Below the pieces are notes generated by a model, which was not told where the DNA came from, did no database searches, and saw only the letters and a list, made by a program, of their open reading frames with translations. This document shows positions 11,918-56,322 of a stretch of DNA of 64,000 bases, in pieces (the first letter of the stretch is position 1; every line of letters starts with the position of its first letter). A program made the translations under genes and the position numbers. Origin of the DNA: a bacterium (GTDB taxonomy: Bacteria > UBA8248). Where the stretch lies: contig OZ253442.1 of NCBI GenBank assembly GCA_965261085.1, forward strand, positions 96,001-160,000, in the 5' to 3' direction.

Positions 11918-13222
11918 TCAAATGCCGTCGACCTCTGATTCTGCCGAGGAGGGATCGTAGAAGTTGAAATCGTCCGCATCGAGATCCGCGACGTCGAAAC
12001 CCTCCAGCCGGATCGTGCCGCCTCCTTGCGAGGTCAGGTCGATGACGGCGTCGGTTCCATCGGCGCTTATGGTCAGATCCTCAAAACCGGTAATGCCCGT
12101 GATCGCCGTGAGGTCAATGGCGTCCTCCCCGTCGGTGAAGTCGGTGATCGTGTCGGTTCCGAAGCTGCCGTTGAAATAGAAGGTGTCCGCATCGGCGCCG
12201 CCCGTGAGCGTGTCGTCCCCGAGCCCGCCGTTCAGCGAATCGGCGCCCGCGCCGCCAAAGAGTTCATCCGTGCCGGAGCCGGCGACAATCCTGTCGTTGT
12301 CCGCGCCGCCGTAGAGTTCGTCATCGCCTGAGCCGCCGACGAGCCAGTCGTTGCCGGCGTCGCCGAAGATCGTGTCATCGCCTGCGTCGCCAAGGAGCGA
12401 ATCCTTGCCCTCGCCGCCCCGGATACTGTCGTCACCGCCGCCGCCGAAAACCGTGTCGTCGCCCCCCAGGGCGTCGATGTTCTCGGCGGTCGCGTCACCC
12501 AGAATCCTGTCGTTGGATCCTGTGCCGTATTCCCAACTAGTGGCGAAGATGAAATCGTCGGCATCCAGATTGTCCGCCGTAAACCCTTCGAGAAATATCG
12601 TGCCGCCGCCGTGTTCGGTCAGATCGATTGTGACGCCGTCGTCGCTGGAGGTGATGGTCAGGTCATCGAAACTGGAGATATTGTTGAAACTCAGTTCGAT
12701 CTTGTCTTCTCCGGAGGTGAAATCGTAGACGACGTCGTTTCCGTGGCCCGGTGCGAACACGAACGTATCGGCTCCAGCGTCGCCATACATTTCATCGTCG
12801 CCCGTTCCGCCGGAAATGGTGTCGGCTCCTGCACCACCCTCCAGCATGTCATTACCCTCGCCGCCATAAAGAACATCGTCGCCCTCGTGGCCCGCAAGGC
12901 TGTCTGCCTCGGCACCACCTCTTAAAGTGTCATTACCTGCGCCGCCCCCGAGAAAATCAGCACCCTCACCGCCATCGAGTTCGTCGTTCCCCTCTCCTCC
13001 TTCTATCCAATCCTGACCTTCGCCGCCCGTGATGGTATCGTTGCCCACCCCGCCGTAGAGCGCGTCCCAGCCGGCCCCACCCGTGATGCTGTCGTCCCCT
13101 CCGCCACCTTCGATCCGGTCTCCGTCATCATCGGCCTGGAGAACGTCGTCTCCCGAGGTGCCGGTAATCGTGTTTTGCTGAGGCGTGTTTTCCTCGCCCA
13201 CGTTTTCATCAGGCACGTCCAT
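11918..13222 (-). CDS. RTX/hemolysin-type calcium-binding repeat protein
   Basis: Many GGxGxDxLx nonapeptides; two repeated DFTxGEDxI...DLTI...IDL...GGGTIxLEGF...LDADDF modules. Confidence 0.9.
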   Translation of the reverse strand: MDVPDENVGEENTPQQNTITGTSGDDVLQADDDGDRIEGGGGDDSITGGAGWDALYGGVGNDTITGGEGQDWIEGGEGNDELDGGEGADFLGGGAGNDTLRGGAEADSLAGHEGDDVLYGGEGNDMLEGGAGADTISGGTGDDEMYGDAGADTFVFAPGHGNDVVYDFTSGEDKIELSFNNISSFDDLTITSSDDGVTIDLTEHGGGTIFLEGFTADNLDADDFIFATSWEYGTGSNDRILGDATAENIDALGGDDTVFGGGGDDSIRGGEGKDSLLGDAGDDTIFGDAGNDWLVGGSGDDELYGGADNDRIVAGSGTDELFGGAGADSLNGGLGDDTLTGGADADTFYFNGSFGTDTITDFTDGEDAIDLTAITGITGFEDLTISADGTDAVIDLTSQGGGTIRLEGFDVADLDADDFNFYDPSSAESEVDGI

Positions 13223-13825
13223 TTCTCCTCATTCAGGAACCAGTCGACGACTCGAGCGCGACGGGCACCCTCTCGCCCGGAACGGATAACGGGTTAAAAT
13301 TCAAGCATACATTAACTTTTAACTATCAAATTTTAATATTCCGGCGAAAGCTGCGTCAAGAAAAATTTTTGGGGAAAGAGTACCTATTCCACCTCGCAAA
13401 ATGAATTTCAACCGGAGCCATCCGAAAACGACGGGAACAATCCCTCCCCCGCATCTCCCCGTATTTGCCGTTATCGCGTCATCAAGGGAATCCGCCAGAA
13501 TCTCCTGCGAGGAGGCATTCTCATGAATGCAAACTATATGGAAAAAGGAAATGCGCTGCGCCTCTCTCCCCGATCGGGATTGAAGTGCGCCAAAGGATGC
13601 GCCATGAATTTCGATAAAATAGTGAAAAATCAGGTAAATATCGATAAATTCACGATGTTTTTCGATAAAATGCTCGCCGGTAAAATCATCGTAAGATATT
13701 GAAATTAAAAGTAAATCAATACAAATCTTAGCGCAGACGACTCAAATAAACGCCAAAAAAAATCAAACGCATCGCATTTGCCCGCAACTTCCCGCATCTG
13801 CCCGCTTTGGCCTGAAAGGCGGGCC

Positions 13826-14728
13826 TTAGGAGGTGGGCTTGATCCTCGAAGGCAGACCCCCCATCTCGCGCAGCACCTCGTAGAAGGCGACGGTGTCCTC
13901 TTCCGCATAACCCCGCTCATAGGCCATCTGCACCACCTGGGACCAGAGGTTCGTCATCAGCATGGGCGAGCCGTGGAGTTGGCCTTGCTCCAGCATGAGG
14001 CGCGAATCCTTAAGCGAGGTCTTCACCTGGCCCTGTTTCGAGTAATCCGCGTGAATCATCTTGGGACCCTTGTCTATCATCGTTTTGGAGGAACACGCCC
14101 CGTCTTTGAGCACTTCCAAAAGGGTGTCCATCTCGAGACCCACCTTCGTGCCGAGCATCAGCCCCTCGGCCAGGGCGAGCCGGTTGCCCGCCAGGATCAT
14201 GTTGATGACGAGCTTCGTCCGTGCGCCCGAGCCCACCGGCCCCATATAGTACGCCGCCCGGCTGAAACCGGCGAAAACAGCGCGGCAGGCGTCGAAATCC
14301 TCCGCCTCACCGCCCGCGATGACCACCAGATCCTTCGCCACGGCCATGGTGCTCGTCCCGCTCACGGCGGAATCGAGAAATCGGATTCCCCGCTCTTTCA
14401 AATCCCCGGCGAGACGAACCGAATCCTCAGGACGCGAGGTCGTCGTATCGAGGTGGTAGAGACCCTCTTTCGCCCCCTCGGCGATGCCGCCCGCCCCGAG
14501 AGTGGCCTCGCGCGCAACGTCGCTGTTGGGCAAAGAGGTGATGACGAAGTTCACGCCTCTGGCGGCTTCAGCGGGCGTCTCGGCGGGATGGCCGCCTTTT
14601 TCGCGCAAATCATCCATGCGAGCGGAGTCCACGTCGAAGCCCTGCACCTCGAAGCCCGTCTCATGCATGTTCTTGATGAACGCCTGGCCCATCAGTCCCA
14701 TGCCCACGATACCCACACGTTGCGACAT
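13826..14728 (-). CDS. NAD(P)-dependent oxidoreductase, 3-hydroxyisobutyrate dehydrogenase family
   Basis: GMGLMG, LDSAVSG, GSGARTKLVIN. Confidence 0.85.
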   Translation of the reverse strand: MSQRVGIVGMGLMGQAFIKNMHETGFEVQGFDVDSARMDDLREKGGHPAETPAEAARGVNFVITSLPNSDVAREATLGAGGIAEGAKEGLYHLDTTTSRPEDSVRLAGDLKERGIRFLDSAVSGTSTMAVAKDLVVIAGGEAEDFDACRAVFAGFSRAAYYMGPVGSGARTKLVINMILAGNRLALAEGLMLGTKVGLEMDTLLEVLKDGACSSKTMIDKGPKMIHADYSKQGQVKTSLKDSRLMLEQGQLHGSPMLMTNLWSQVVQMAYERGYAEEDTVAFYEVLREMGGLPSRIKPTS

Positions 14729-14881
14729 ACTTCTTTCTCCTCTCATGGCAGTGAATTTCGCTCCCTTTTAGGACGTTCGCCCCCCGAGAACAAGCCGCGC
14801 GGCTCCCCCAAAAGCATTTCGCGCCGCGAAAACCCCTAAAGGCGCTTTCAGAACCATCCCCAGCCGTTGTATTCTTCTCAT

Positions 14882-14978
14882 GGGAGCGCATCGGTGCTGG
14901 TGTGCCGCCTGGACTTCAAATCCAGTGGACGGGGCTAATCACTTCGTCGGTGGGTTCGACTCCCACGCGTTCCCGCCA
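14882..14978 (+). tRNA. selC: tRNA-Sec (anticodon UCA)
   Basis: 97 nt; 8-bp acceptor stem GGGAGCGC/GCGTTCCC plus GCCA end; anticodon arm CTGGA-CTTCAAA-TCCAG; long variable arm; T-arm GTGGG-TTCGACT-CCCAC. Confidence 0.93.
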
Positions 14979-15032
14979 GTTTTGCCACCCTCCCGCCAGA
15001 TTCACGGCAGTGAGATGACCCGCTAAAAAACA

Positions 15033-15776
15033 TCACACAATCGTCAAACCGCCATCTAATACCAGAATCTGGCCCGTCATGTAGGATGAGCGGGGCGTCA
15101 CCAGATACTCCATGGCGTCGAGCACTTCATCGACCCGCCCGAACCTGCCCATGGGCGATTTGCGGTAGCGCTCCGCCAGGTTCTCGGGGTCGCCGTCTCC
15201 TTGAGTTTCCCTGAGCTTCGTCAGCACCGGACCCGCAGCTATGGCGTTCACGCGTATGTTCCAATCCGCCAGTTCGACGGCCAGCGCACGAGTGAGGCCC
15301 TCCACCCCGCCCTTTACGGCGACGTACACCACGCGCTCCTTGGCCGGCGTGTGCGCGTAAAAACTCGACATGTTGACGATGGCGCCGCCGCCTCGCTTAT
15401 TCATCTCGGCAGCCGCACGCTTCGCGCACAGGATGTTGCCCTTGAGACCCACGGCCAGCGCCAGGTCGATCGTGGCCTCCTCGACCTCCGCCAGAGGGCC
15501 GTTCCCCCGAATGACGGCGCAATTGATCAGAACGTCCACGCCACCGAATTTCCCGACCACCGCGTCGAAAGCGTCCTCGACGCCCTTTTCATTAGAGAGG
15601 TCCCCCTTTACGCCAAAGATGGCGCCGGGCGATTCCGCTTCGAGCCTGCGCAGGCCCTCTTCGTCCACGTCCACGGCCGCTACTTTCGCTCCCATGCCCG
15701 AAAACCGTCGCGCGGCGTCCGCCCCGATTCCCCGGGCCGCGCCCGTGATGACGAAAATTTTCCCGTTCAGTTCCAT
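15033..15776 (-). CDS. SDR family oxidoreductase
   Basis: TGAARGIG, YVAVK, NIRVNAIAAG. Confidence 0.9.
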   Translation of the reverse strand: MELNGKIFVITGAARGIGADAARRFSGMGAKVAAVDVDEEGLRRLEAESPGAIFGVKGDLSNEKGVEDAFDAVVGKFGGVDVLINCAVIRGNGPLAEVEEATIDLALAVGLKGNILCAKRAAAEMNKRGGGAIVNMSSFYAHTPAKERVVYVAVKGGVEGLTRALAVELADWNIRVNAIAAGPVLTKLRETQGDGDPENLAERYRKSPMGRFGRVDEVLDAMEYLVTPRSSYMTGQILVLDGGLTIV

Positions 15777-15822
15777 AGCGGTCCTTCCACTCACCGACCA
15801 ACGAGAGGCGCAAGATTCCCGC

Positions 15823-16833
15823 TCACAACGAGAGCACCCCCTCGCCTCGTGAAATTTCCAGCCGCGTTCCCAGTTTCTTGGAGAGTGATTCGAGGGTGCT
15901 CAGGATTTCCGCCGATTTGGGCTCCTCCGCGGCGAGAATACGCGGGCTTCCGTCCTCTTCGATCAACACGGGCGCTAAAGCCACCCGGCTGAGCGCTCCT
16001 CCCCTAAGACTTATCTTCAGGCAAATCGACTCGCGCACTGTGGGCATGAACATCGGGTGGTCATGATCCAGCACAAAATTGCCCAACGCATAGAAAACAG
16101 GCCGGCCACGATAGACCTCGATTCCTTGCAGGATATGGGGGTGATGGCCGACGACGATGTCCACCCCCGATTCGATGGCCGCATGAGCAACGGCTTGCTG
16201 GGAAAGCGTGAGCGTACGGCTCTGGCTCGCGCCCCAGTGGAACGACGCCAAAAGAAAATCGACTCTCGGACGCGCGCGCTCAATGTCGGCGGCCATCGCC
16301 TCCATGTCCTCTTCATTCACATAAGGGGGGCCATAGAGCGCATCCTGCCGGATGGGGGTGACGCCCGGCTTCTCAGGGCCCGCCCCCCAGCCCATGGGCA
16401 ATTCGAGCACGTAGGATAAAAACCCGTATCGTACTCCTTTTCGCTCCATAACGGCGGGCGTTCGCGCTTCCTGGATATTCCGGCCCGCTCCCGAGTATGC
16501 GATTCCGTTTCGCTCGAGAAGTTCCATCGTCTCGACAAATGGTTCGACCCCGTAGTCCATGCAGTGGTTGCTGGCGAACGCCAATACGTCGAAGCCTCCT
16601 GCGAGATATCCCCGAATCATGTTCGGGCTATGGCGCATCACGATCTTCCCGCTCGCGGGTTCACCCAGATGAGACATCGACGCCTCGAGGCCACCGAAGC
16701 GCAGATCGGCCGCATCCAGAAAAGAGGCGACCTTCGAAAAAGTGTCTCCTGGTTCGGGGCGATCGATTTCCATATCGCCCACCACGACGAGCGTGGACTC
16801 GCTATCCGCTAAATCTTGCGCTTCACTAGGCAA
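15823..16833 (-). CDS. CapA/PgsA-like metallophosphoesterase family protein
   Basis: VVGD, ASNHCMDYG, SFHWG, GHHPHILQGIE, YALGNF. Confidence 0.85.
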   Translation of the reverse strand: MPSEAQDLADSESTLVVVGDMEIDRPEPGDTFSKVASFLDAADLRFGGLEASMSHLGEPASGKIVMRHSPNMIRGYLAGGFDVLAFASNHCMDYGVEPFVETMELLERNGIAYSGAGRNIQEARTPAVMERKGVRYGFLSYVLELPMGWGAGPEKPGVTPIRQDALYGPPYVNEEDMEAMAADIERARPRVDFLLASFHWGASQSRTLTLSQQAVAHAAIESGVDIVVGHHPHILQGIEVYRGRPVFYALGNFVLDHDHPMFMPTVRESICLKISLRGGALSRVALAPVLIEEDGSPRILAAEEPKSAEILSTLESLSKKLGTRLEISRGEGVLSL

Positions 16834-50252: not shown

Positions 50253-50637
50253 CTCGCATCCTTCCCGGCTGGAAAGCGGGTCTTCGGTGGAGCGGAAACC
50301 TGCGTTCGATGTGGTCGCAACCGAACCGGATTTTCTCACACCTCTTTTTGTCCCTCAAGAAAAAAGGCCTGCGAAGGACATCGATGGGCGAATGTTCAGG
50401 GTTTGAGGCGAAAATCGCATTTTTTGCGTATTTTTTTGGCGGGCAATTACAATTTTGTTGACGAAACGAACACGCCATATATACTTTTCGGGTAACGTCT
50501 TCTTATTTTGCCTGGACATAAGGGCGGCAAAGCAACCACTCTCTCCCGGACACGGCGGCTATGGAGCCCCGGCGGGAGAAAGTGAGGAAGCACTGCCCGC
50601 TTTTGGAGCAGGCTTATCATCTGGAGAACTCGAAACA

Positions 50638-50925
50638 GTGAAAACCGTAGAGGAAGTGCGCGAGGAAATTATCAGAAAGGCGAGCGAGAACGAGGCGTTC
50701 CGCTCCGAATTGCTGGCCGACCCCAAGGCCGCCATTGAACGGGAATTGGGGGTCACCATTCCCGATGGGTTCAAGATCGGCGTGCACGAAGACAACATCA
50801 TGAGCTTTCACCTGGTGTTGCCGCCGGCCGAGTTGAGCGAGGCGGACCTGAGCGCCGTCGTGGCCGGAACGCAGACGATGCAAGACTTCGCCAACGCCTG
50901 GAACAACTTGAACCAGAACTCCTGA
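50638..50925 (+). CDS. NHLP (nitrile hydratase-like leader) RiPP precursor peptide
   Basis: IIRKA.ENEAFRSELLADPKAAIERELG..IP....VHED....HLVLP..ELSEADL.AV.AG leader; core TQTMQDFANAWNNLNQNS; GTG start after GGAG. Confidence 0.88.
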   Translation: MKTVEEVREEIIRKASENEAFRSELLADPKAAIERELGVTIPDGFKIGVHEDNIMSFHLVLPPAELSEADLSAVVAGTQTMQDFANAWNNLNQNS

Positions 50926-51019
50926 TACGATATACCGAAAGAGTTCCATAATCTGATCGACAGGTTTGCCGAAAAACCCTGAGAGGGGATTGGTTCGGGA
51001 TGCCGCTTTGTGGGTTTGA

Positions 51020-51062
51020 ACGGCTCTGCGGTCCACTTCGTTGAAGGGAGACCGAAGAGCCG
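51020..51062 (+). other. Intergenic stem-loop between the RiPP precursor and the enzyme gene
   Basis: CGGCTCT-G-CGGTC..CTTC-GTT-GAAG..GACCG-A-AGAGCCG; no U-tract. Confidence 0.5.
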
Positions 51063-51120
51063 AACTTGCTCATCGTCGTCTTGACCCCAATGTACGTATC
51101 CCGCTCAGAAACAGGATTCG

Positions 51121-52218
51121 ATGATGTCTGAGAATTTCGGGGACGTCTTTCCAAGGTTGCGCCGCTTTTTCCCATCCTCCCTGCTTGACGACCCGTGGTG
51201 GGATCGGCTGGTGGAGCGCGTCGGCGAACTTCCGAGTTGGCTGACCCTGAACTACGCAGCCTTCGAGTTCCGGTTGGGAGACCCTGCGCCCGCCGCCGAT
51301 TATTTCGTCTCGGTTACGCCCGGGCGTCCATCCATGGAGTATTACGTCCACCTGGGCGAGGACGCAAAACCGGACTCCGCCGAGGCGGCCCTCGCCCGGG
51401 TCTACGCCCGCATGAACGGGGCGGGCTCCCCTTCCGAATCCTCTCTCGCCGGCTGGTTCAGAGCGTCGATGCTCGAATACGACATCGCGGAGATTCCTTT
51501 GAACCAGCGACAGCCCCCGGGCGTGTTCCTGGCGCTTCAGCCTCAATCCGAACTGGATGAAAACCTCGTGGGTTCGCGAACTCCTGACCGCCTGGCCGCC
51601 ACCATAGTGAGCGCGGTCGGGTGGGACGAGGACGAGGAAGAGCGCCGCGCCGTGGAACGGGCCTTCGCCGCCTTGCCCCGGGACGGCGTGGTGGATCAGA
51701 TCGGCGCCGCGGCGCAGCGCGAGCCGCGCTCCATCCGCCTCATCGTGGACGGGTTGAAAGGGCGCAACATGCCGGCTCTCCTGAAGCGGCTGAAATGGGA
51801 AGGCCCCACCCGGAAGGTGATGGACGTTTTAGAGGAGATGCGCGACGTGACGCCGGTCTTCCGGCTCGCGGTGGACGTCGGCGCGCACGGCGTGGGGCCG
51901 CGCCTGGGCCTCGAGATGTACAGGCCGAGAAAACCCTCGAACCTCGACTACTGGCTGACCTCGGGGCGCAACGCCTGGCGTCCCGTCGTGGACTACCTCG
52001 AAGAGATGAAATGGTGTCTGCCGGAAAAGGGAGACGGCCTGCGCGCATTCCCGGGAATCGAGCGAATTTTCGATGAAAACGGCATGTCCATCCTGTATAA
52101 GGGAATCAACCACTTCAAGCTGTCCATCGAGGGCGACGCCGTCGAGGCCAAGGCCTACGCCGCCCTCGCCTACTTCCGGCTCTACGCTCCCTCCGAGGAA
52201 GAATCTGAGCCGGCGTGA
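51121..52218 (+). CDS. Uncharacterised protein, putative RiPP maturase (PT-barrel prenyltransferase-like)
   Basis: Codon usage matches the backbone; directly follows the NHLP precursor; strand-like motifs FEFRL, LEYD, PGVFL, QIG..R...IRL, GPRLGLE, NHFKL...AKAY. Confidence 0.55.
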   Translation: MMSENFGDVFPRLRRFFPSSLLDDPWWDRLVERVGELPSWLTLNYAAFEFRLGDPAPAADYFVSVTPGRPSMEYYVHLGEDAKPDSAEAALARVYARMNGAGSPSESSLAGWFRASMLEYDIAEIPLNQRQPPGVFLALQPQSELDENLVGSRTPDRLAATIVSAVGWDEDEEERRAVERAFAALPRDGVVDQIGAAAQREPRSIRLIVDGLKGRNMPALLKRLKWEGPTRKVMDVLEEMRDVTPVFRLAVDVGAHGVGPRLGLEMYRPRKPSNLDYWLTSGRNAWRPVVDYLEEMKWCLPEKGDGLRAFPGIERIFDENGMSILYKGINHFKLSIEGDAVEAKAYAALAYFRLYAPSEEESEPA

Positions 52219-52309: not shown

Positions 52310-53560
52310 TCAAATTGATATTTTGGTTTGCTTGGGCAACAATTTGTCAAAATCACTTTTATTAATCAAATTATCAGCAAATCCTCTCATGACAATATAT
52401 GGCCGCATCAGTGGACTGTTAAAACGATAGCGTATCTGACGTTTTGGACCCGTTCGATAAAGAAGTCCTCCACGTTCTTTACCACTCAATTCTTTCAGGT
52501 GACGGGCGAAATTTGGAATATCATATGAGCGATTCGTGATAATTCGCAAAGGTTCCCGAACATTCGCTGCAGAGAAATATCCGAGGTCGTCATTCTCAGC
52601 GAATGCACAAGCCAAAACAACTTCTCTGAAGATGTGACCTGGTTGCTGGCTCTTGGTTGCACGATAATACGCCATCTTGATTGATTCTTGCCATTGTTCG
52701 AGGGCTCTTTCCATTCCTTCGTTTACGTCTTGATTTTCAAGCTCTTTACTTTCTCTCTTTATTGCCACCTTTGTAGCGTGAAGCGCGAGCAGGTGGGTAA
52801 CATATGGCAAACCCTGAGACAGGCTAACAATTTCTGATTTTGCATCATCTTTAATTTTCATCTGTAGTCGCCCCATGCCTTTTGCAACAATTTCGGCAAT
52901 TTCAGTGTTTGACATACGCGGCATCGGTACTTGGACAAGCGCTCGTTCGATGGATTGATGCTCGCTGATCAATTCGTCTACAGAATCTGCGACACCGATC
53001 AGAAGAATTGTAGCTTTAACACTATAATCAGAAAGACTTTTGATTGTGTCAGCCATTACGGCGGGAATTTCACTGTTCACTGTCCGATCGAACTCATCAA
53101 ATACTGGAACAAGAATAATTCCGTGTGAAAATTCATCTAAAATTCTACGAATATCTTCTGGAGATAAATTTTCAGGAAGGCTCTCCACAAGTTTCCGTCT
53201 AACACTAACTTCTTGTTTGGTAAATCCAACCCCAGGACGTGTCGCAGTTAAGGTGATGTTGTCAAACTGTTTTTTCCACAGACTTGTGAATGTATCAGTT
53301 GTGTCACAATTTACGCGTGGAAGGAGAAATCTTCCGCCAGTTTTGTGCAAAAAACTTAAAAGGACATTAGATAATGAAGTCTTTCCAACTCCACGCTCAC
53401 CATAAAGAACCGCATGGTAACCACGCTGAGAAATAGTGTCGATTATCTTATTTACTTGGTCAATCCTACCCGAAAATAATTCAGCCTCACTGATTGGGGC
53501 ACCCGGCGTGAACACTTGGTTCGCATTAAACTCTAACTCAGCCCAATAATCGCTCGCCAT
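52310..53560 (-). CDS. AAA+ ATPase (ORC1/Cdc6- or STAND-like) with probable C-terminal winged helix
   Basis: FTPGAP, FSGR, GERGVGKTS, VFDEFD, SQGLPY..H; AT-rich. Confidence 0.8.
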   Translation of the reverse strand: MASDYWAELEFNANQVFTPGAPISEAELFSGRIDQVNKIIDTISQRGYHAVLYGERGVGKTSLSNVLLSFLHKTGGRFLLPRVNCDTTDTFTSLWKKQFDNITLTATRPGVGFTKQEVSVRRKLVESLPENLSPEDIRRILDEFSHGIILVPVFDEFDRTVNSEIPAVMADTIKSLSDYSVKATILLIGVADSVDELISEHQSIERALVQVPMPRMSNTEIAEIVAKGMGRLQMKIKDDAKSEIVSLSQGLPYVTHLLALHATKVAIKRESKELENQDVNEGMERALEQWQESIKMAYYRATKSQQPGHIFREVVLACAFAENDDLGYFSAANVREPLRIITNRSYDIPNFARHLKELSGKERGGLLYRTGPKRQIRYRFNSPLMRPYIVMRGFADNLINKSDFDKLLPKQTKISI

Positions 53561-53588
53561 ACGCCACCTCAAGCGTCTAGTAAAGAAG

Positions 53589-53735: not shown

Positions 53736-53857
53736 CCGAGGGTAAGCTTTGCCTAACGCGGAAGGAGCTAATCAACGATGCAGTAGATCGTCAGGCAAAG
53801 CGCATCGCCTTCGTGGACGAGAATCTGACTAATCCTTCTGCCGGAGCAATCCAATGA
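53729..53857 (+). pseudogene. Probable C-terminal remnant of an upstream DUF488 gene
   Basis: Frame reads LQPEGKLCLTRKELINDAVDRQAKRIAFVDENL...Q*, with its TGA overlapping the next ATG; resembles the tail of the first gene of tandem DUF488 pairs (recalled, not searched). Confidence 0.45.
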
Positions 53858-54291
53858 AATTATTCACCACCGGATTTACCAATAAGTCGGCATGCCGTTT
53901 CTTTGACCTACTTCTGGAATCGCGTGTGAAAAGGATTTTGGGCGTTCGAATCAACAACGGGTCGCAACTCGCCGGTTTCGCCAAGAAGGACGATCTCTCG
54001 TACTTCCTCGAAAAGATTTGTGGAATGGATTATGTTCATCTGCCAGACCTCGGCGCCACGAAGGAGTTATTACGGGAGTATCAAGCAGGAAACTTAGATT
54101 GGGAGACCTATGAAAAGCGTTTCACAGAGTTGATGCGTGAACGACGCATTGAGGAAACGACTCCAAAAGATGTTCTAAGCGATGGCTGTCTTTTGTGTAG
54201 CGAAGATCAGCCACATCATTGCCACCGTCGACTCGTAGCGGAATATCTAAACGAACATTGGAGAGACATCGATATCTCCCACTTGCGTTAA
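53854..54291 (+). CDS. DUF488 family protein
   Basis: FT.GFT.KSA..FF, VR.NN.SQLAGFAK, LLCSE..PHHCHRRLVAEYL. Confidence 0.88.
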   Translation: MKLFTTGFTNKSACRFFDLLLESRVKRILGVRINNGSQLAGFAKKDDLSYFLEKICGMDYVHLPDLGATKELLREYQAGNLDWETYEKRFTELMRERRIEETTPKDVLSDGCLLCSEDQPHHCHRRLVAEYLNEHWRDIDISHLR

Positions 54292-54821: not shown

Positions 54822-55115
54822 ATGCCCATGAAGAATCCGCCGCATCCCGGCAAGGTCGTGCGCGTCTCCTGTCTGGAGCCGCTGGGCCTGAGCGTGACCG
54901 AAGGCGCCAAAGCGCTGGGCGTCAGCCGCCAAGCCCTCTCGAACCTGGTGAACGGGCGCGCGCGGGTGTCCTCCGAGATGGCGATTCGCCTCGCCAAGGC
55001 CTTCGGCTCCACGACGGAGACCTGGATACGCCTTCAGACGGCTTATGACATCGCCCAAGCACTTGAACGCGAGGATGAAATCGAGGTCAAACGCTACGAG
55101 CCGCAACCGGCGTGA
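54822..55115 (+). CDS. higA: HigA addiction module antitoxin
   Basis: [43 protein letters not shown]. Confidence 0.92.
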
Positions 55116-55181
55116 GAGGAGCCGGCTGCAATTTAGCCGCGCGGGCCAACCTCGACCGGAGAAGGAGGACTCCTGTGTCCC

Positions 55182-55502
55182 CTACGAAATCGCGGCGTCC
55201 CCCGCCACGAGCACGACGTGATCGGTTTCAATGCGCCGCCTGAAATGCTCGGGCACGGAATCCCACACGAATACGTCCACGCGAAAAGGCAGGCTGCTCT
55301 CCTCTAACGCTTCTTTGAGATCGTAGACTCTTCGGCTTTGGGCGGGCTCGGCGAACACGACCATATCCAGATCGGATTTGGGGCGCGCTTCTCCCCTCGC
55401 GCGGGAGCCGTACACCCAGGCGGCGGTGTTCGGCAGATGCTTATCGAGCAAACCCAGAATGAGCGCGCGCTGCGCCTCGGTGACGTCGATGGTCTTGGTC
55501 AT
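55182..55502 (-). CDS. Minimal nucleotidyltransferase (MNT antitoxin)
   Basis: YGSRARG....SDLD, LPFRVD; its ATG overlaps the upstream HEPN stop. Confidence 0.88.
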   Translation of the reverse strand: MTKTIDVTEAQRALILGLLDKHLPNTAAWVYGSRARGEARPKSDLDMVVFAEPAQSRRVYDLKEALEESSLPFRVDVFVWDSVPEHFRRRIETDHVVLVAGDAAIS

Positions 55503-55911
55503 TCCCATGTCCGTTTGGTCATGGTTTGGTAGAGACCCGCGGCGTCTTCAATGAAATCACCCACTATCTCCAAAGCGGCTCGCGCCTTTTCGCCGCTGTA
55601 GGCGTGGGCGGTATCGCGGCATAGCCCAGCCATCGCTCCAGAGGCGCAGGGAGCATCAAATCGTTCTCGAAGGCGAGTCTGAAGACGGGCTTGGGGCTGT
55701 TGGGCGCATTCGCGACGCCCAACTCTTCGACCAGGTATCGCTTGGGCACCTTCCAGAGGCAGTCGTAGCAGGTCTCGAAACGCTGGATGACCGACTCGGC
55801 GACGGCTTCTCTGAGCAGTTCGGGTAGTACGGCGTCGGGTTTCCGATAATTCTCATACTGCTCTTCCAGACGTTTGAGGGACATCCGAAAATTGTCGTAC
55901 TCAACCATCAT
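55499..55911 (-). pseudogene. HEPN / nucleotidyltransferase substrate-binding (HI0074-like) toxin, frameshifted
   Basis: IQRFETCY..LWK, SPKPVFR; after WLGY the homologous tail RDTAHAYSGEKA...FIEDA..LYQTMT...WE* continues in another frame. Confidence 0.78.
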
Positions 55912-56322
55912 ACGCCTCACAACGTCGAAAAACCTTCATCCGCATCGGGCCTCGACCATCATCCCACAAGGCATGAATTTGTCAATAAATCGCACAGGCG
56001 CATTTGCCCGCATCTGCGGTGCGGCGGGACCGGGCCGGTTCGGGTAGATTCCGGGAAGCGTTTCTTGGAGGAGAACACATGCGTAGATGCCGAAATTCAG
56101 AGGGCGCGCTTCACTTTAGAGATCGCACGAGGGACGCAAGAATTCAGAATAATGCAAATAATCAAATTTCCTGTAAAATTAGATAAATTGACGAGGTTAT
56201 TCGATAAATTAACGGGGTATTTCTAAAAATAAACGAACCATAAAACGGCTCTTTTTCAGCGCAAAACGGCCCTTTTTCGGCTGAAAACCTGGGCTTTCGC
56301 CCCTTTTCGGGGCTAAACGGCC

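Follow-up and report, generated by a model that had tools for sequence, protein, structure and literature searches.

A Two-Gene NHLP Peptide Cassette With a Predicted PT-Barrel Enzyme, a Candidate Leader-Guided Tryptophan Prenyltransferase of a Divergent Sequence Family

The stretch of DNA analyzed here, referred to as the window, comprises 64,000 nucleotides (nt) of contig OZ253442.1 (positions 96,001 to 160,000 of the forward strand; assembly GCA_965261085.1) from a bacterium of the lineage UBA8248. It contains a gene for a peptide precursor with an NHLP leader, as known from peptides that are made on the ribosome and modified after translation (RiPPs), followed in the same direction by a gene for a protein of 365 amino acids (aa) whose predicted structure is that of a prenyltransferase barrel (PT-barrel, or ABBA fold). 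This gene pair and the probable role of the enzyme in modifying the peptide are the subject of the present analysis, and the features of the locus are collected in Table 1.

Table 1. Features of the cassette and its downstream flank, in window coordinates.
Feature	Position	Strand	Basis or remark
Sigma-70-like promoter candidate, TTGACG-16-TATACT	50458-50485	+	10/12 matches, consensus match only
NHLP precursor gene	50638-50925	+	GTG start 50638, stop 50923-50925; 95 aa
NHLP leader, 77 aa, with L(X)4L motif (LSEADL) and AG cleavage-type end	50638-50868	+	TIGR03793
18-aa core TQTMQDFANAWNNLNQNS and stop	50869-50925	+	Translation
Intergenic spacer, 195 nt	50926-51120	+	Conserved, predicted structured
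365-aa PT-barrel (ABBA-fold) enzyme, proposed leader-guided Trp prenyltransferase	51121-52218	+	Predicted fold and gene association
STAND/AAA NTPase gene	52310-53572	-	Within low-GC segment 52230-54500
DUF488 gene	53854-54291		Within low-GC segment 52230-54500
Helix-turn-helix (HigA-like) gene and nucleotidyltransferase/substrate-binding (HEPN-like) gene pair	54822-55920		Typical of toxin-antitoxin systems

The Precursor and Its Core

The NCBIfam model TIGR03793 (leader_NHLP) matched the precursor with 67.5 bits, residues 4-77 aligning with model positions 2-77; with the curated cut-off at 50.9, chance can be dismissed as the source of this leader assignment. Coordinates, translation and profile score agree with the preliminary description of this locus, made from the sequence alone, which had read the gene as a 95-aa NHLP precursor with an Asn/Gln-rich, Cys-free core of 18 aa containing one Trp. 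The leader terminus, ELSEADLSAVVAG, includes the L(X)4L motif, which acts as a contact for the modifying enzyme and for the C39 peptidase (PMC10858898), and it ends in VVAG, the corresponding end being GG or AG in relatives. In a MAFFT alignment of 36 precursors, L66 of the leader was invariant and E68, L71 and G77 were nearly so. The core TQTMQDFANAWNNLNQNS contains five Asn, three Gln, no Cys and a single Trp (residue 88, codon 50899-50901), and this Trp formed an invariant column in the same alignment, the cores being otherwise unalignable. All orthologues from the genus keep the core block [FL][AV]NAWN[SN]L. On the basis of this sequence pattern Trp88 is proposed as the site of modification.

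When the whole genome of the window was scanned with TIGR03793, the precursor was the sole match above the cut-off, and no Nif11 leader was found in this genome. Below this threshold, two NHLP-leader matches of 36 and 28 bits lie inside a single 266-aa open frame (G000:C1:322589-322984), the product of which is possibly a nitrile-hydratase-like protein in its own right or one with tandem NHLP-like domains. In one member of the genus (locus L045, 5149-5792; also L017) two precursor genes are arranged in tandem, and the upstream copy, which has an altered leader and a long C-terminal extension beyond NAWN, is degenerate and looks like a decaying duplicate.

A PT-Barrel Fold Predicted for the Enzyme

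Searches of the 365-aa protein against Pfam and NCBIfam gave no match at E ≤ 1, which fits the initial observation that it lacks radical S-adenosylmethionine (SAM), YcaO, LanM, halogenase and GNAT motifs, and 20 distant members of its family likewise matched no family in these databases at E ≤ 0.1. The window protein lay outside the profiles of Trp_DMAT (PF11991), PTase_Orf2 (PF11468) and DUF5838 (PF19156) and outside the NCBIfam models. PDB sequence searches with two profiles returned no relevant match; NifA, which alone appeared at E 0.41, was taken as a chance match. Relatives of the protein are numerous, with 62 found at E ≤ 0.001 by a word-index search and 961 by an exhaustive phmmer search over 1.84 billion cluster representatives (of which 312 reached E ≤ 1e-10 and 98 reached E ≤ 1e-30). 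The family comprises about 1000 clusters at 50% identity and is single-copy in the window genome.

For structure prediction and analysis of conservation we used an alignment of 121 family members reaching down to about 25% identity, which when compared with itself by hhalign revealed no internal repeats. The AlphaFold2 model based on this alignment had a mean predicted local distance difference test score (pLDDT) of 93.6 and a predicted template-modelling score (pTM) of 0.92. It consists of five alpha-alpha-beta-beta repeats, with two helices preceding each strand pair, and its strands are E46-51, E59-65, E113-120, E134-139, E190-196, E205-210, E246-254, E257-267, E312-318, E321-337 and E340-353. 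All six strand motifs on which an ABBA-like architecture had first been surmised (FEFRL, LEYD, IRL, PRLGLE, HFKL and KAY) fall within strands of the model, namely E46-51, E113-120, E205-210, E257-267, E321-337 and E340-353. A Foldseek search with the model against 350,542 PDB chains yielded 82 matches at E ≤ 0.001, and all among the matches listed were aromatic prenyltransferases, with AmbP1 as the best (E 2.7e-7) and NphB, AmbP3, EpzP, TleC, IptA, FamD1, CloQ, PriB, AnaPT, DMATS1 and AtaPT among the others, at sequence identities of 9-15%. VIA-align, which ranks structures independently of Foldseek, was run against all 48,161 representative PDB chains and placed PT-barrel prenyltransferases at ranks 1-19 (Z 16.0-11.3), while rank 20 was a generic beta-barrel with Z 5.6. 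The matches included MpnD (Z 16.0; root-mean-square deviation (rmsd) 4.8, 302 residues aligned), DMATS1 (Z 15.9), FunA (Z 15.5), AuraA (Z 15.2), CymD (Z 15.1), FgaPT2 (Z 15.0), NphB (Z 14.2), CloQ (Z 12.4) and, among the cyanobactin enzymes, PatF (Z 12.3), PagF (Z 12.0) and DciF (Z 11.3), and together they span enzyme residues 1-354. Among the 1000 best chains from Foldseek, a second look gave Z ≥ 8 for 131, and indole/Trp prenyltransferases stood at their head. Since the matches of both programs are PT-barrel enzymes and the scores then drop to Z 5.6, the predicted fold is that of a PT-barrel, as the preliminary description had supposed, and in structure, by this model, the window enzyme belongs to the ABBA superfamily, standing outside all of its named sequence families.

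In addition, secondary structure propensities averaged over the alignment, together with hydrophobic periodicity, gave ten beta strands in five pairs with helix pairs between them. Two weak and mutually independent leads point toward a PT-barrel as well. The protein-language-model neighbors of P0019 and P0165, family members 27% identical to the window protein, included as Pfam-bearing clusters only Trp_DMAT (0.89), PTase_Orf2 (0.88) and DUF5838, scores that count as leads only. In a coevolution analysis of 299 sequences the strongest strand-strand couplings joined strands adjacent in sequence, including strand 1 with strand 10, and a closed-ring strand order outperformed random ring orders (P 0.009-0.04); because the mean-field analysis (effective number of sequences 193, 347 columns) was too shallow for a contact map, only this tally of strand neighbors was used.

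Residues conserved in at least 90% of the 121 aligned sequences include E49, D60, E119, D121, R200, R206, W226, W286, K303, H331, K333, K344 and Y346, and the conserved polar residues lie in a common register on each strand of the model. It is a hallmark of PT-barrels that basic and Tyr residues in the lumen bind the prenyl diphosphate and that an acidic residue contacts the acceptor. E49, D60, E119, D121, R200, R206, K303, H331, K333, K344 and Y346 form an active-site-like pattern and are candidate lumen residues.

The family domain also occurs in fused forms. In P0209 (660 aa) it occupies residues 322-656 (hhalign probability 100), and in P0134 (449 aa, partial) it follows an N-terminal region. 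The N-terminal 320 aa of P0209 matched nothing in Pfam at E ≤ 10 and nothing in the PDB, and a single-sequence AlphaFold2 model was useless (pLDDT 35.5). The label "squalene cyclase C-terminal domain" that the ESM Atlas gives for 22% of one cluster is an unconfirmed lead for these forms. A search with the 121-sequence alignment for longer fusions, covering lengths of 756-2155 aa, found none.

Pairing With Trp-Bearing Precursors

The enzyme family was found in 16 of the 61 genomes searched, all of them, including that of the window, from the window's genus, and an NHLP precursor lay within 1.5 kb in 29 of the 31 same-genus loci (two of the 31 being the window's own locus). A broader set of 75 distinct loci, obtained by a pattern scan with one genome per species, came from Nitrospinota, Chloroflexota (SAR202/Dehalococcoidia), Pseudomonadota (Alpha- and Gammaproteobacteria), Acidobacteriota (Vicinamibacterales), Spirochaetota (Spirochaetia) and Binatia. 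In 71 of these loci, representing at least six phyla, at least one NHLP precursor (E ≤ 1e-10) was present inside 6 kb. The 232 precursor open reading frames (ORFs) are distributed unevenly, from 1 to 14 per locus, with a single precursor in 33 loci and 10-14 in the largest arrays. A quick maximum-likelihood tree of the enzymes showed the phyla intermixed, the Pseudomonadota alone requiring at least five changes, as would be expected of a gene exchanged among co-resident bacteria; the window enzyme clustered with a Chloroflexota clade with a support of 98 in the Shimodaira-Hasegawa-like approximate likelihood ratio test.

The breadth and consistency of this association bear on the possibility that the two genes are unlinked, the 365-aa protein being an aromatic prenyltransferase for small molecules that happens to be encoded next to a precursor gene. 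The solved structural relatives ranked highest do have small molecules or free amino acids as their substrates. However, pairing in 71 of 75 loci, drawn from six or more phyla that are intermixed in the tree, a gene order that is kept within the genus and an RNA-library contig that covers both genes together make a chance neighborhood very improbable.

The cores encoded in these loci are hypervariable, with a median length of 13-15 residues, yet 148 of the 151 distinct cores contain Trp, in 73 of them as the terminal residue, and a cruder definition of the core boundary gave a similar proportion (169 of 177). Thus the test suggested at the outset, whether homologues sit next to NHLP precursors with a conserved Trp, had a positive outcome. 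Trp accounts for 10% of core residues compared to 0.07% of leader residues, and the residue preceding the last Trp is most commonly Asp (39) or Asn (25). The exceptions to the Trp rule belong to one clade, in which the precursors end in xAPTxxSY and some cores are without Trp. Position 119 of the enzyme is Glu in 70 of the enzymes from these loci and Ala in six, all of which belong to this clade. The replacement hints at a specificity signal, and to judge from its sequences the clade may be a Tyr-directed branch. In this clade (L075, L079, L081, L086, L088, L089 and L100) a single precursor gene is located about 5.7 kb from the enzyme gene on the opposite strand, and in L086 a gene for a SAM-dependent methyltransferase lies directly upstream of the enzyme gene.

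An active PT-barrel enzyme might also have a target other than the conserved Trp, such as the N-terminus, an Asn, Gln, Thr or Ser side chain or Tyr, or might transfer a group that is not a simple isoprenyl. Prenylation by cyanobactin PT-barrel enzymes extends to Ser, Thr, Tyr, Arg, His and Trp as well as the termini, and this breadth, together with the one clade that pairs with Tyr-ending cores, speaks for such an alternative. However, Trp is the only residue conserved across the cores (148 of 151) and forms the invariant column of the 36-precursor alignment, and the best structural matches of the enzyme are indole/Trp prenyltransferases, so that another target or group appears unlikely.

Companion Genes and the Exporter

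In a Pfam comparison that covered 13 loci in different phyla with 73 ORFs, an ABC protein of about 980 aa, an ABC protein with a C39 peptidase domain and an HlyD protein recur beside the enzyme, and no other maturase recurs. Across the 75 loci, NHLM-type ABC genes are present within 6 kb of the enzyme gene in 38 and YcaO in one, and homologues of the other genes of srp-like loci that were tested were found in none. Because no other maturase recurs in these loci, the enzyme is the sole common candidate for the modifying activity.

The genome of the window contains one operon of HlyD, C39-peptidase-ABC and ABC genes (G000:C1, about 522.3-528.6 kb), which matched TIGR03796 with 983 bits (cut-off 853), TIGR03797 with 783 bits (cut-off 709) and also Peptidase_C39 and HlyD. 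Neither a precursor nor a maturase was found in its neighborhood, and we infer that it is the obvious candidate for removing the leader after VVAG and exporting the window peptide. The preliminary description of a minimal two-gene locus consequently holds in cis and does not hold genome-wide, as this NHLM-type exporter operon is located about 377 kb from the cassette.

Paralogues in srp-Type Clusters

At 11 same-genus loci with paralogues of the enzyme, the NHLP precursor ends in LCCCW (LSCCW in one), which is the published core of SrpE (PMC10858898; PMC10286304; bioRxiv 10.1101/2023.06.09.544420). At one LCCCW locus the paralogue is the final gene, directly after YcaO and convergent to the precursor gene, of an operon encoding an ABC protein, an NHLP-like protein, a desaturase/GlnE-like fusion, YcaO and the paralogue, and in 3/3 genomes checked Trp_halogenase matches lie about 12.5 kb from it. 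The srp clusters combine an NHLP precursor that has a conserved terminal Trp with the YcaO protein SrpC and the brominase SrpI, and share a theme with the window family. In the literature covered, the gene of the paralogue is not found under the name SrpD. However, the window core TQTMQDFANAWNNLNQNS differs from the LCCCW core, the window genome contains neither a Trp_halogenase match nor an srp-type locus, and the cassette does not belong among the srp clusters. The srp-type paralogues are very divergent (branch length 1.9 in the quick tree) and have R51, R261, E265, Y267 and C299 replaced.

A 461-aa FAD oxidoreductase encoded near an srp-like locus was considered as a brominase and rejected, since it is 97% identical to the product of a gene of the window genome, which has no such cluster. 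One of the paralogue loci (L107, G021:C1:1405000-1424999) encodes at 12824-16688 an 812-aa fusion of fatty-acid-desaturase and GlnE-like nucleotidyltransferase domains, and also a 447-aa protein with an NHLP-leader-like N-terminus (NHase_alpha match at residues 34-88); neither is known to have been given a role in the srp literature covered.

Comparison With Known Prenyltransferases

The closest functional parallel is MppC of Moorena producens, an ABBA prenyltransferase that needs a Nif11-type leader including L(X)4L and geranylates Trp at C5 (PMC12715784). Like MppC, the window enzyme is soluble, has by its model a PT-barrel fold and is encoded beside a long-leader RiPP precursor with one Trp. 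The same source assigns MppC to the cyanobactin prenyltransferase family and gives a lanthionine-cyclized core as its substrate (PMC12715784). The window protein, in contrast, matches no sequence model of cyanobactin or other prenyltransferases, and its locus lacks LanM and encodes an NHLP leader, the cores of its family being linear and hypervariable.

A second parallel is provided by the PalQ system, in which the precursor PalX carries an NHLP leader that enhances prenylation and a conserved C-terminal Trp; PalQ and ComQ are described there as Trp prenyltransferases resembling trans-isoprenyl diphosphate synthases, and the three-gene cluster encodes one maturase (PMC10853753; PMC13290415). 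In those descriptions PalQ requires a C-terminal Trp, whereas Trp88 of the window precursor lies 7 residues from the end. Moreover, PalQ has the all-helical isoprene-synthase fold, a type marked by an Asp-rich motif, whereas the window protein is a beta-barrel by its model; no isoprenoid-synthase structure was found among the 50 VIA-align matches listed, and the window protein had no Pfam polyprenyl-synthase match. PalQ and the window family appear to have solved the same substrate problem by convergence.

The DMATS-type enzymes (MpnD, CymD, FgaPT2, 6-DMATS, IptA and PriB) are the best structural matches (Z 14-16, about 290-308 residues aligned) and use indole substrates. They differ from the proposed role of the window protein in acting on free Trp or small indoles without a leader peptide, and with 5-12% identity to it and no PF11991 match they are distant in sequence. 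The cyanobactin enzymes PagF, PatF and DciF share the PT-barrel with the window enzyme and modify ribosomal peptides; however, the cyanobactin prenyltransferases are leader-independent and act after macrocyclization (PMC12715784). In the literature covered, with most subscription papers outside its scope, the only prenyltransferase on NHLP/proteusin precursors was PalQ, which has the other fold, and no ABBA-fold enzyme was found. The idea that the locus represents a class missed by standard annotation can therefore be retained for the sequence family and not for the chemistry, for which MppC and PalQ are precedents (PMC12715784; PMC10853753). In summary, the fold and the general chemistry are already known, while no description appears to exist of the sequence family, of the way it is paired across phyla with arrays of linear proteusin precursors bearing Trp, or of its occurrence in srp clusters.

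Proposed Function

Because the enzyme is predicted to be shaped like a prenyltransferase and is paired across phyla with peptides that keep a Trp, it probably adds a lipid to this conserved residue. We consider the window enzyme likely to be a leader-guided Trp prenyltransferase whose family is new and divergent in sequence among the ABBA enzymes. The locus would then be a two-gene RiPP cassette in which the NHLP precursor is made first and the soluble PT-barrel enzyme binds its long leader, with the L(X)4L stretch probably among the residues bound. The core would be threaded into the barrel, and an isoprenyl group from a prenyl diphosphate would be moved onto the indole of Trp88. The modified peptide would subsequently be cut after VVAG and exported by the single NHLM-type HlyD/C39-ABC/ABC system of the genome.

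Several observations weigh against this assignment. The structural likeness is distant, with identities of 5-15%, Foldseek template-modelling scores of 0.40-0.55 and rmsd values of 7-9 Å (4.2-5.2 Å with VIA-align), and a common fold, here a predicted one, does not establish function. None of the 121 aligned members matched the prenyltransferase/ABBA families of Pfam even at E ≤ 10. Likewise, no ABBA family appeared among the 30 nearest models in an ESM Atlas structure search with P0019, which given the PDB searches we treated as a miss of that service. Trp88 is internal, 7 residues from the C-terminus, and about half of the family cores end in Trp. The correlation of Ala at position 119 with Tyr-ending cores concerns a single clade and hence counts as one evolutionary event, and R51, R261, E265 and Y267 are lost in the srp-type paralogues. 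Finally, the ESM Atlas lists fusions of the same fold with radical SAM/SPASM and nitroreductase/ThcOx proteins, which would fit a peptide-docking role, and PatF, one of the structural matches, is a PT-barrel that is not known to be active.

The last two points lead to the alternative that the family is a catalytically dead PT-barrel that only binds the leader or peptide in the manner of a scaffold or chaperone and, for instance, hands precursors to the exporter, with Trp kept for the activity of an otherwise unmodified peptide. Besides the PatF-type matches and the fusions, which a docking module would be expected to have, the numerous basic residues that are conserved would be compatible with such a function, as they could bind an acidic leader. 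However, eleven charged or aromatic residues kept in at least 90% of the 121 sequences in a strand-register pattern, and the position of the enzyme as the only non-transport gene common to the loci, are difficult to reconcile with it, and a mere binder would explain neither the invariant Trp in hypervariable cores nor the change from Glu119 to Ala in the Tyr-ending clade. We therefore regard a dead barrel as an improbable explanation and retain the leader-guided Trp prenyltransferase as the preferred one.

Taking the loci together, we tentatively suggest, as a possibility that falls somewhat short of being probable, that this PT-barrel family defines a widespread, undescribed class of linear proteusins carrying prenyl groups. 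A locus would use one leader-guided enzyme for an array of as many as 14 hypervariable precursors, each lipidated on a single Trp, and this would amount to a natural combinatorial lipopeptide library similar to that of the prochlorosins; the family would have been exchanged among symbionts of at least six phyla, and through its srp paralogue the srp products would carry bromine and a prenyl group together on one terminal Trp. Should the enzyme be active, it would represent a third independent protein solution for Trp lipidation in ribosomal peptides, besides the cyanobactin-type ABBA enzymes and ComQ/PalQ. Since the family is invisible to Pfam and NCBIfam, it is also invisible to rule-based finders of biosynthetic gene clusters. 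The arrays of very different cores behind one leader suggest a leader-guided, sequence-tolerant catalyst, which would suit the site-specific lipidation of genetically encoded peptides. In addition, the proposal offers a testable function for an unexplained gene within the srp clusters, which are widely expressed in sponge microbiomes.

Expression and Surroundings of the Cassette

Contigs from metatranscriptome libraries of three studies map onto the locus. One of them, 1743 nt long and 97% identical, spans 50526-52205 and thus both genes and the spacer; it starts 41 nt downstream of the promoter candidate, whose pattern was found at three sites compared to 0.7 expected in shuffled sequences. 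Because metatranscriptome libraries can contain DNA, this contig hints at a bicistronic transcript but does not prove it. The spacer has a predicted minimum free energy of -70.2 kcal/mol (z -2.44 relative to shuffled sequences), and an alignment of 11 orthologous loci contained 26 consensus pairs, seven of them with compensatory changes, the covariation term being small. A possible role for it is in processing or attenuation, by which the ratio of precursor to enzyme would be set.

The cassette is flanked upstream by genes for two response regulators, a DUF3105 protein and a xanthine/uracil-type permease, and downstream by those for a STAND NTPase, a DUF488 protein and toxin-antitoxin-like proteins, in accordance with the initial reading that no peptidase or exporter gene is adjacent; neither YcaO nor a halogenase was found among these neighbors. 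In 15 related records, with precursors 71-98% and enzymes 71-94% identical to those of the window, the cassette occupies the same chromosomal position, and the order response regulator-SpoIIE, response regulator, DUF3105, permease, precursor, enzyme is kept where flanking sequence is available. These records vary on the downstream side. There, the segment 52230-54500 has a GC content of 0.41-0.48 compared to about 0.62, and since both of its genes (Table 1) have no counterpart in the 15 syntenic records it is probably a recent insertion at a variable spot. The HigA-like/HEPN-like gene pair that follows occurs at varying distances in several relatives.

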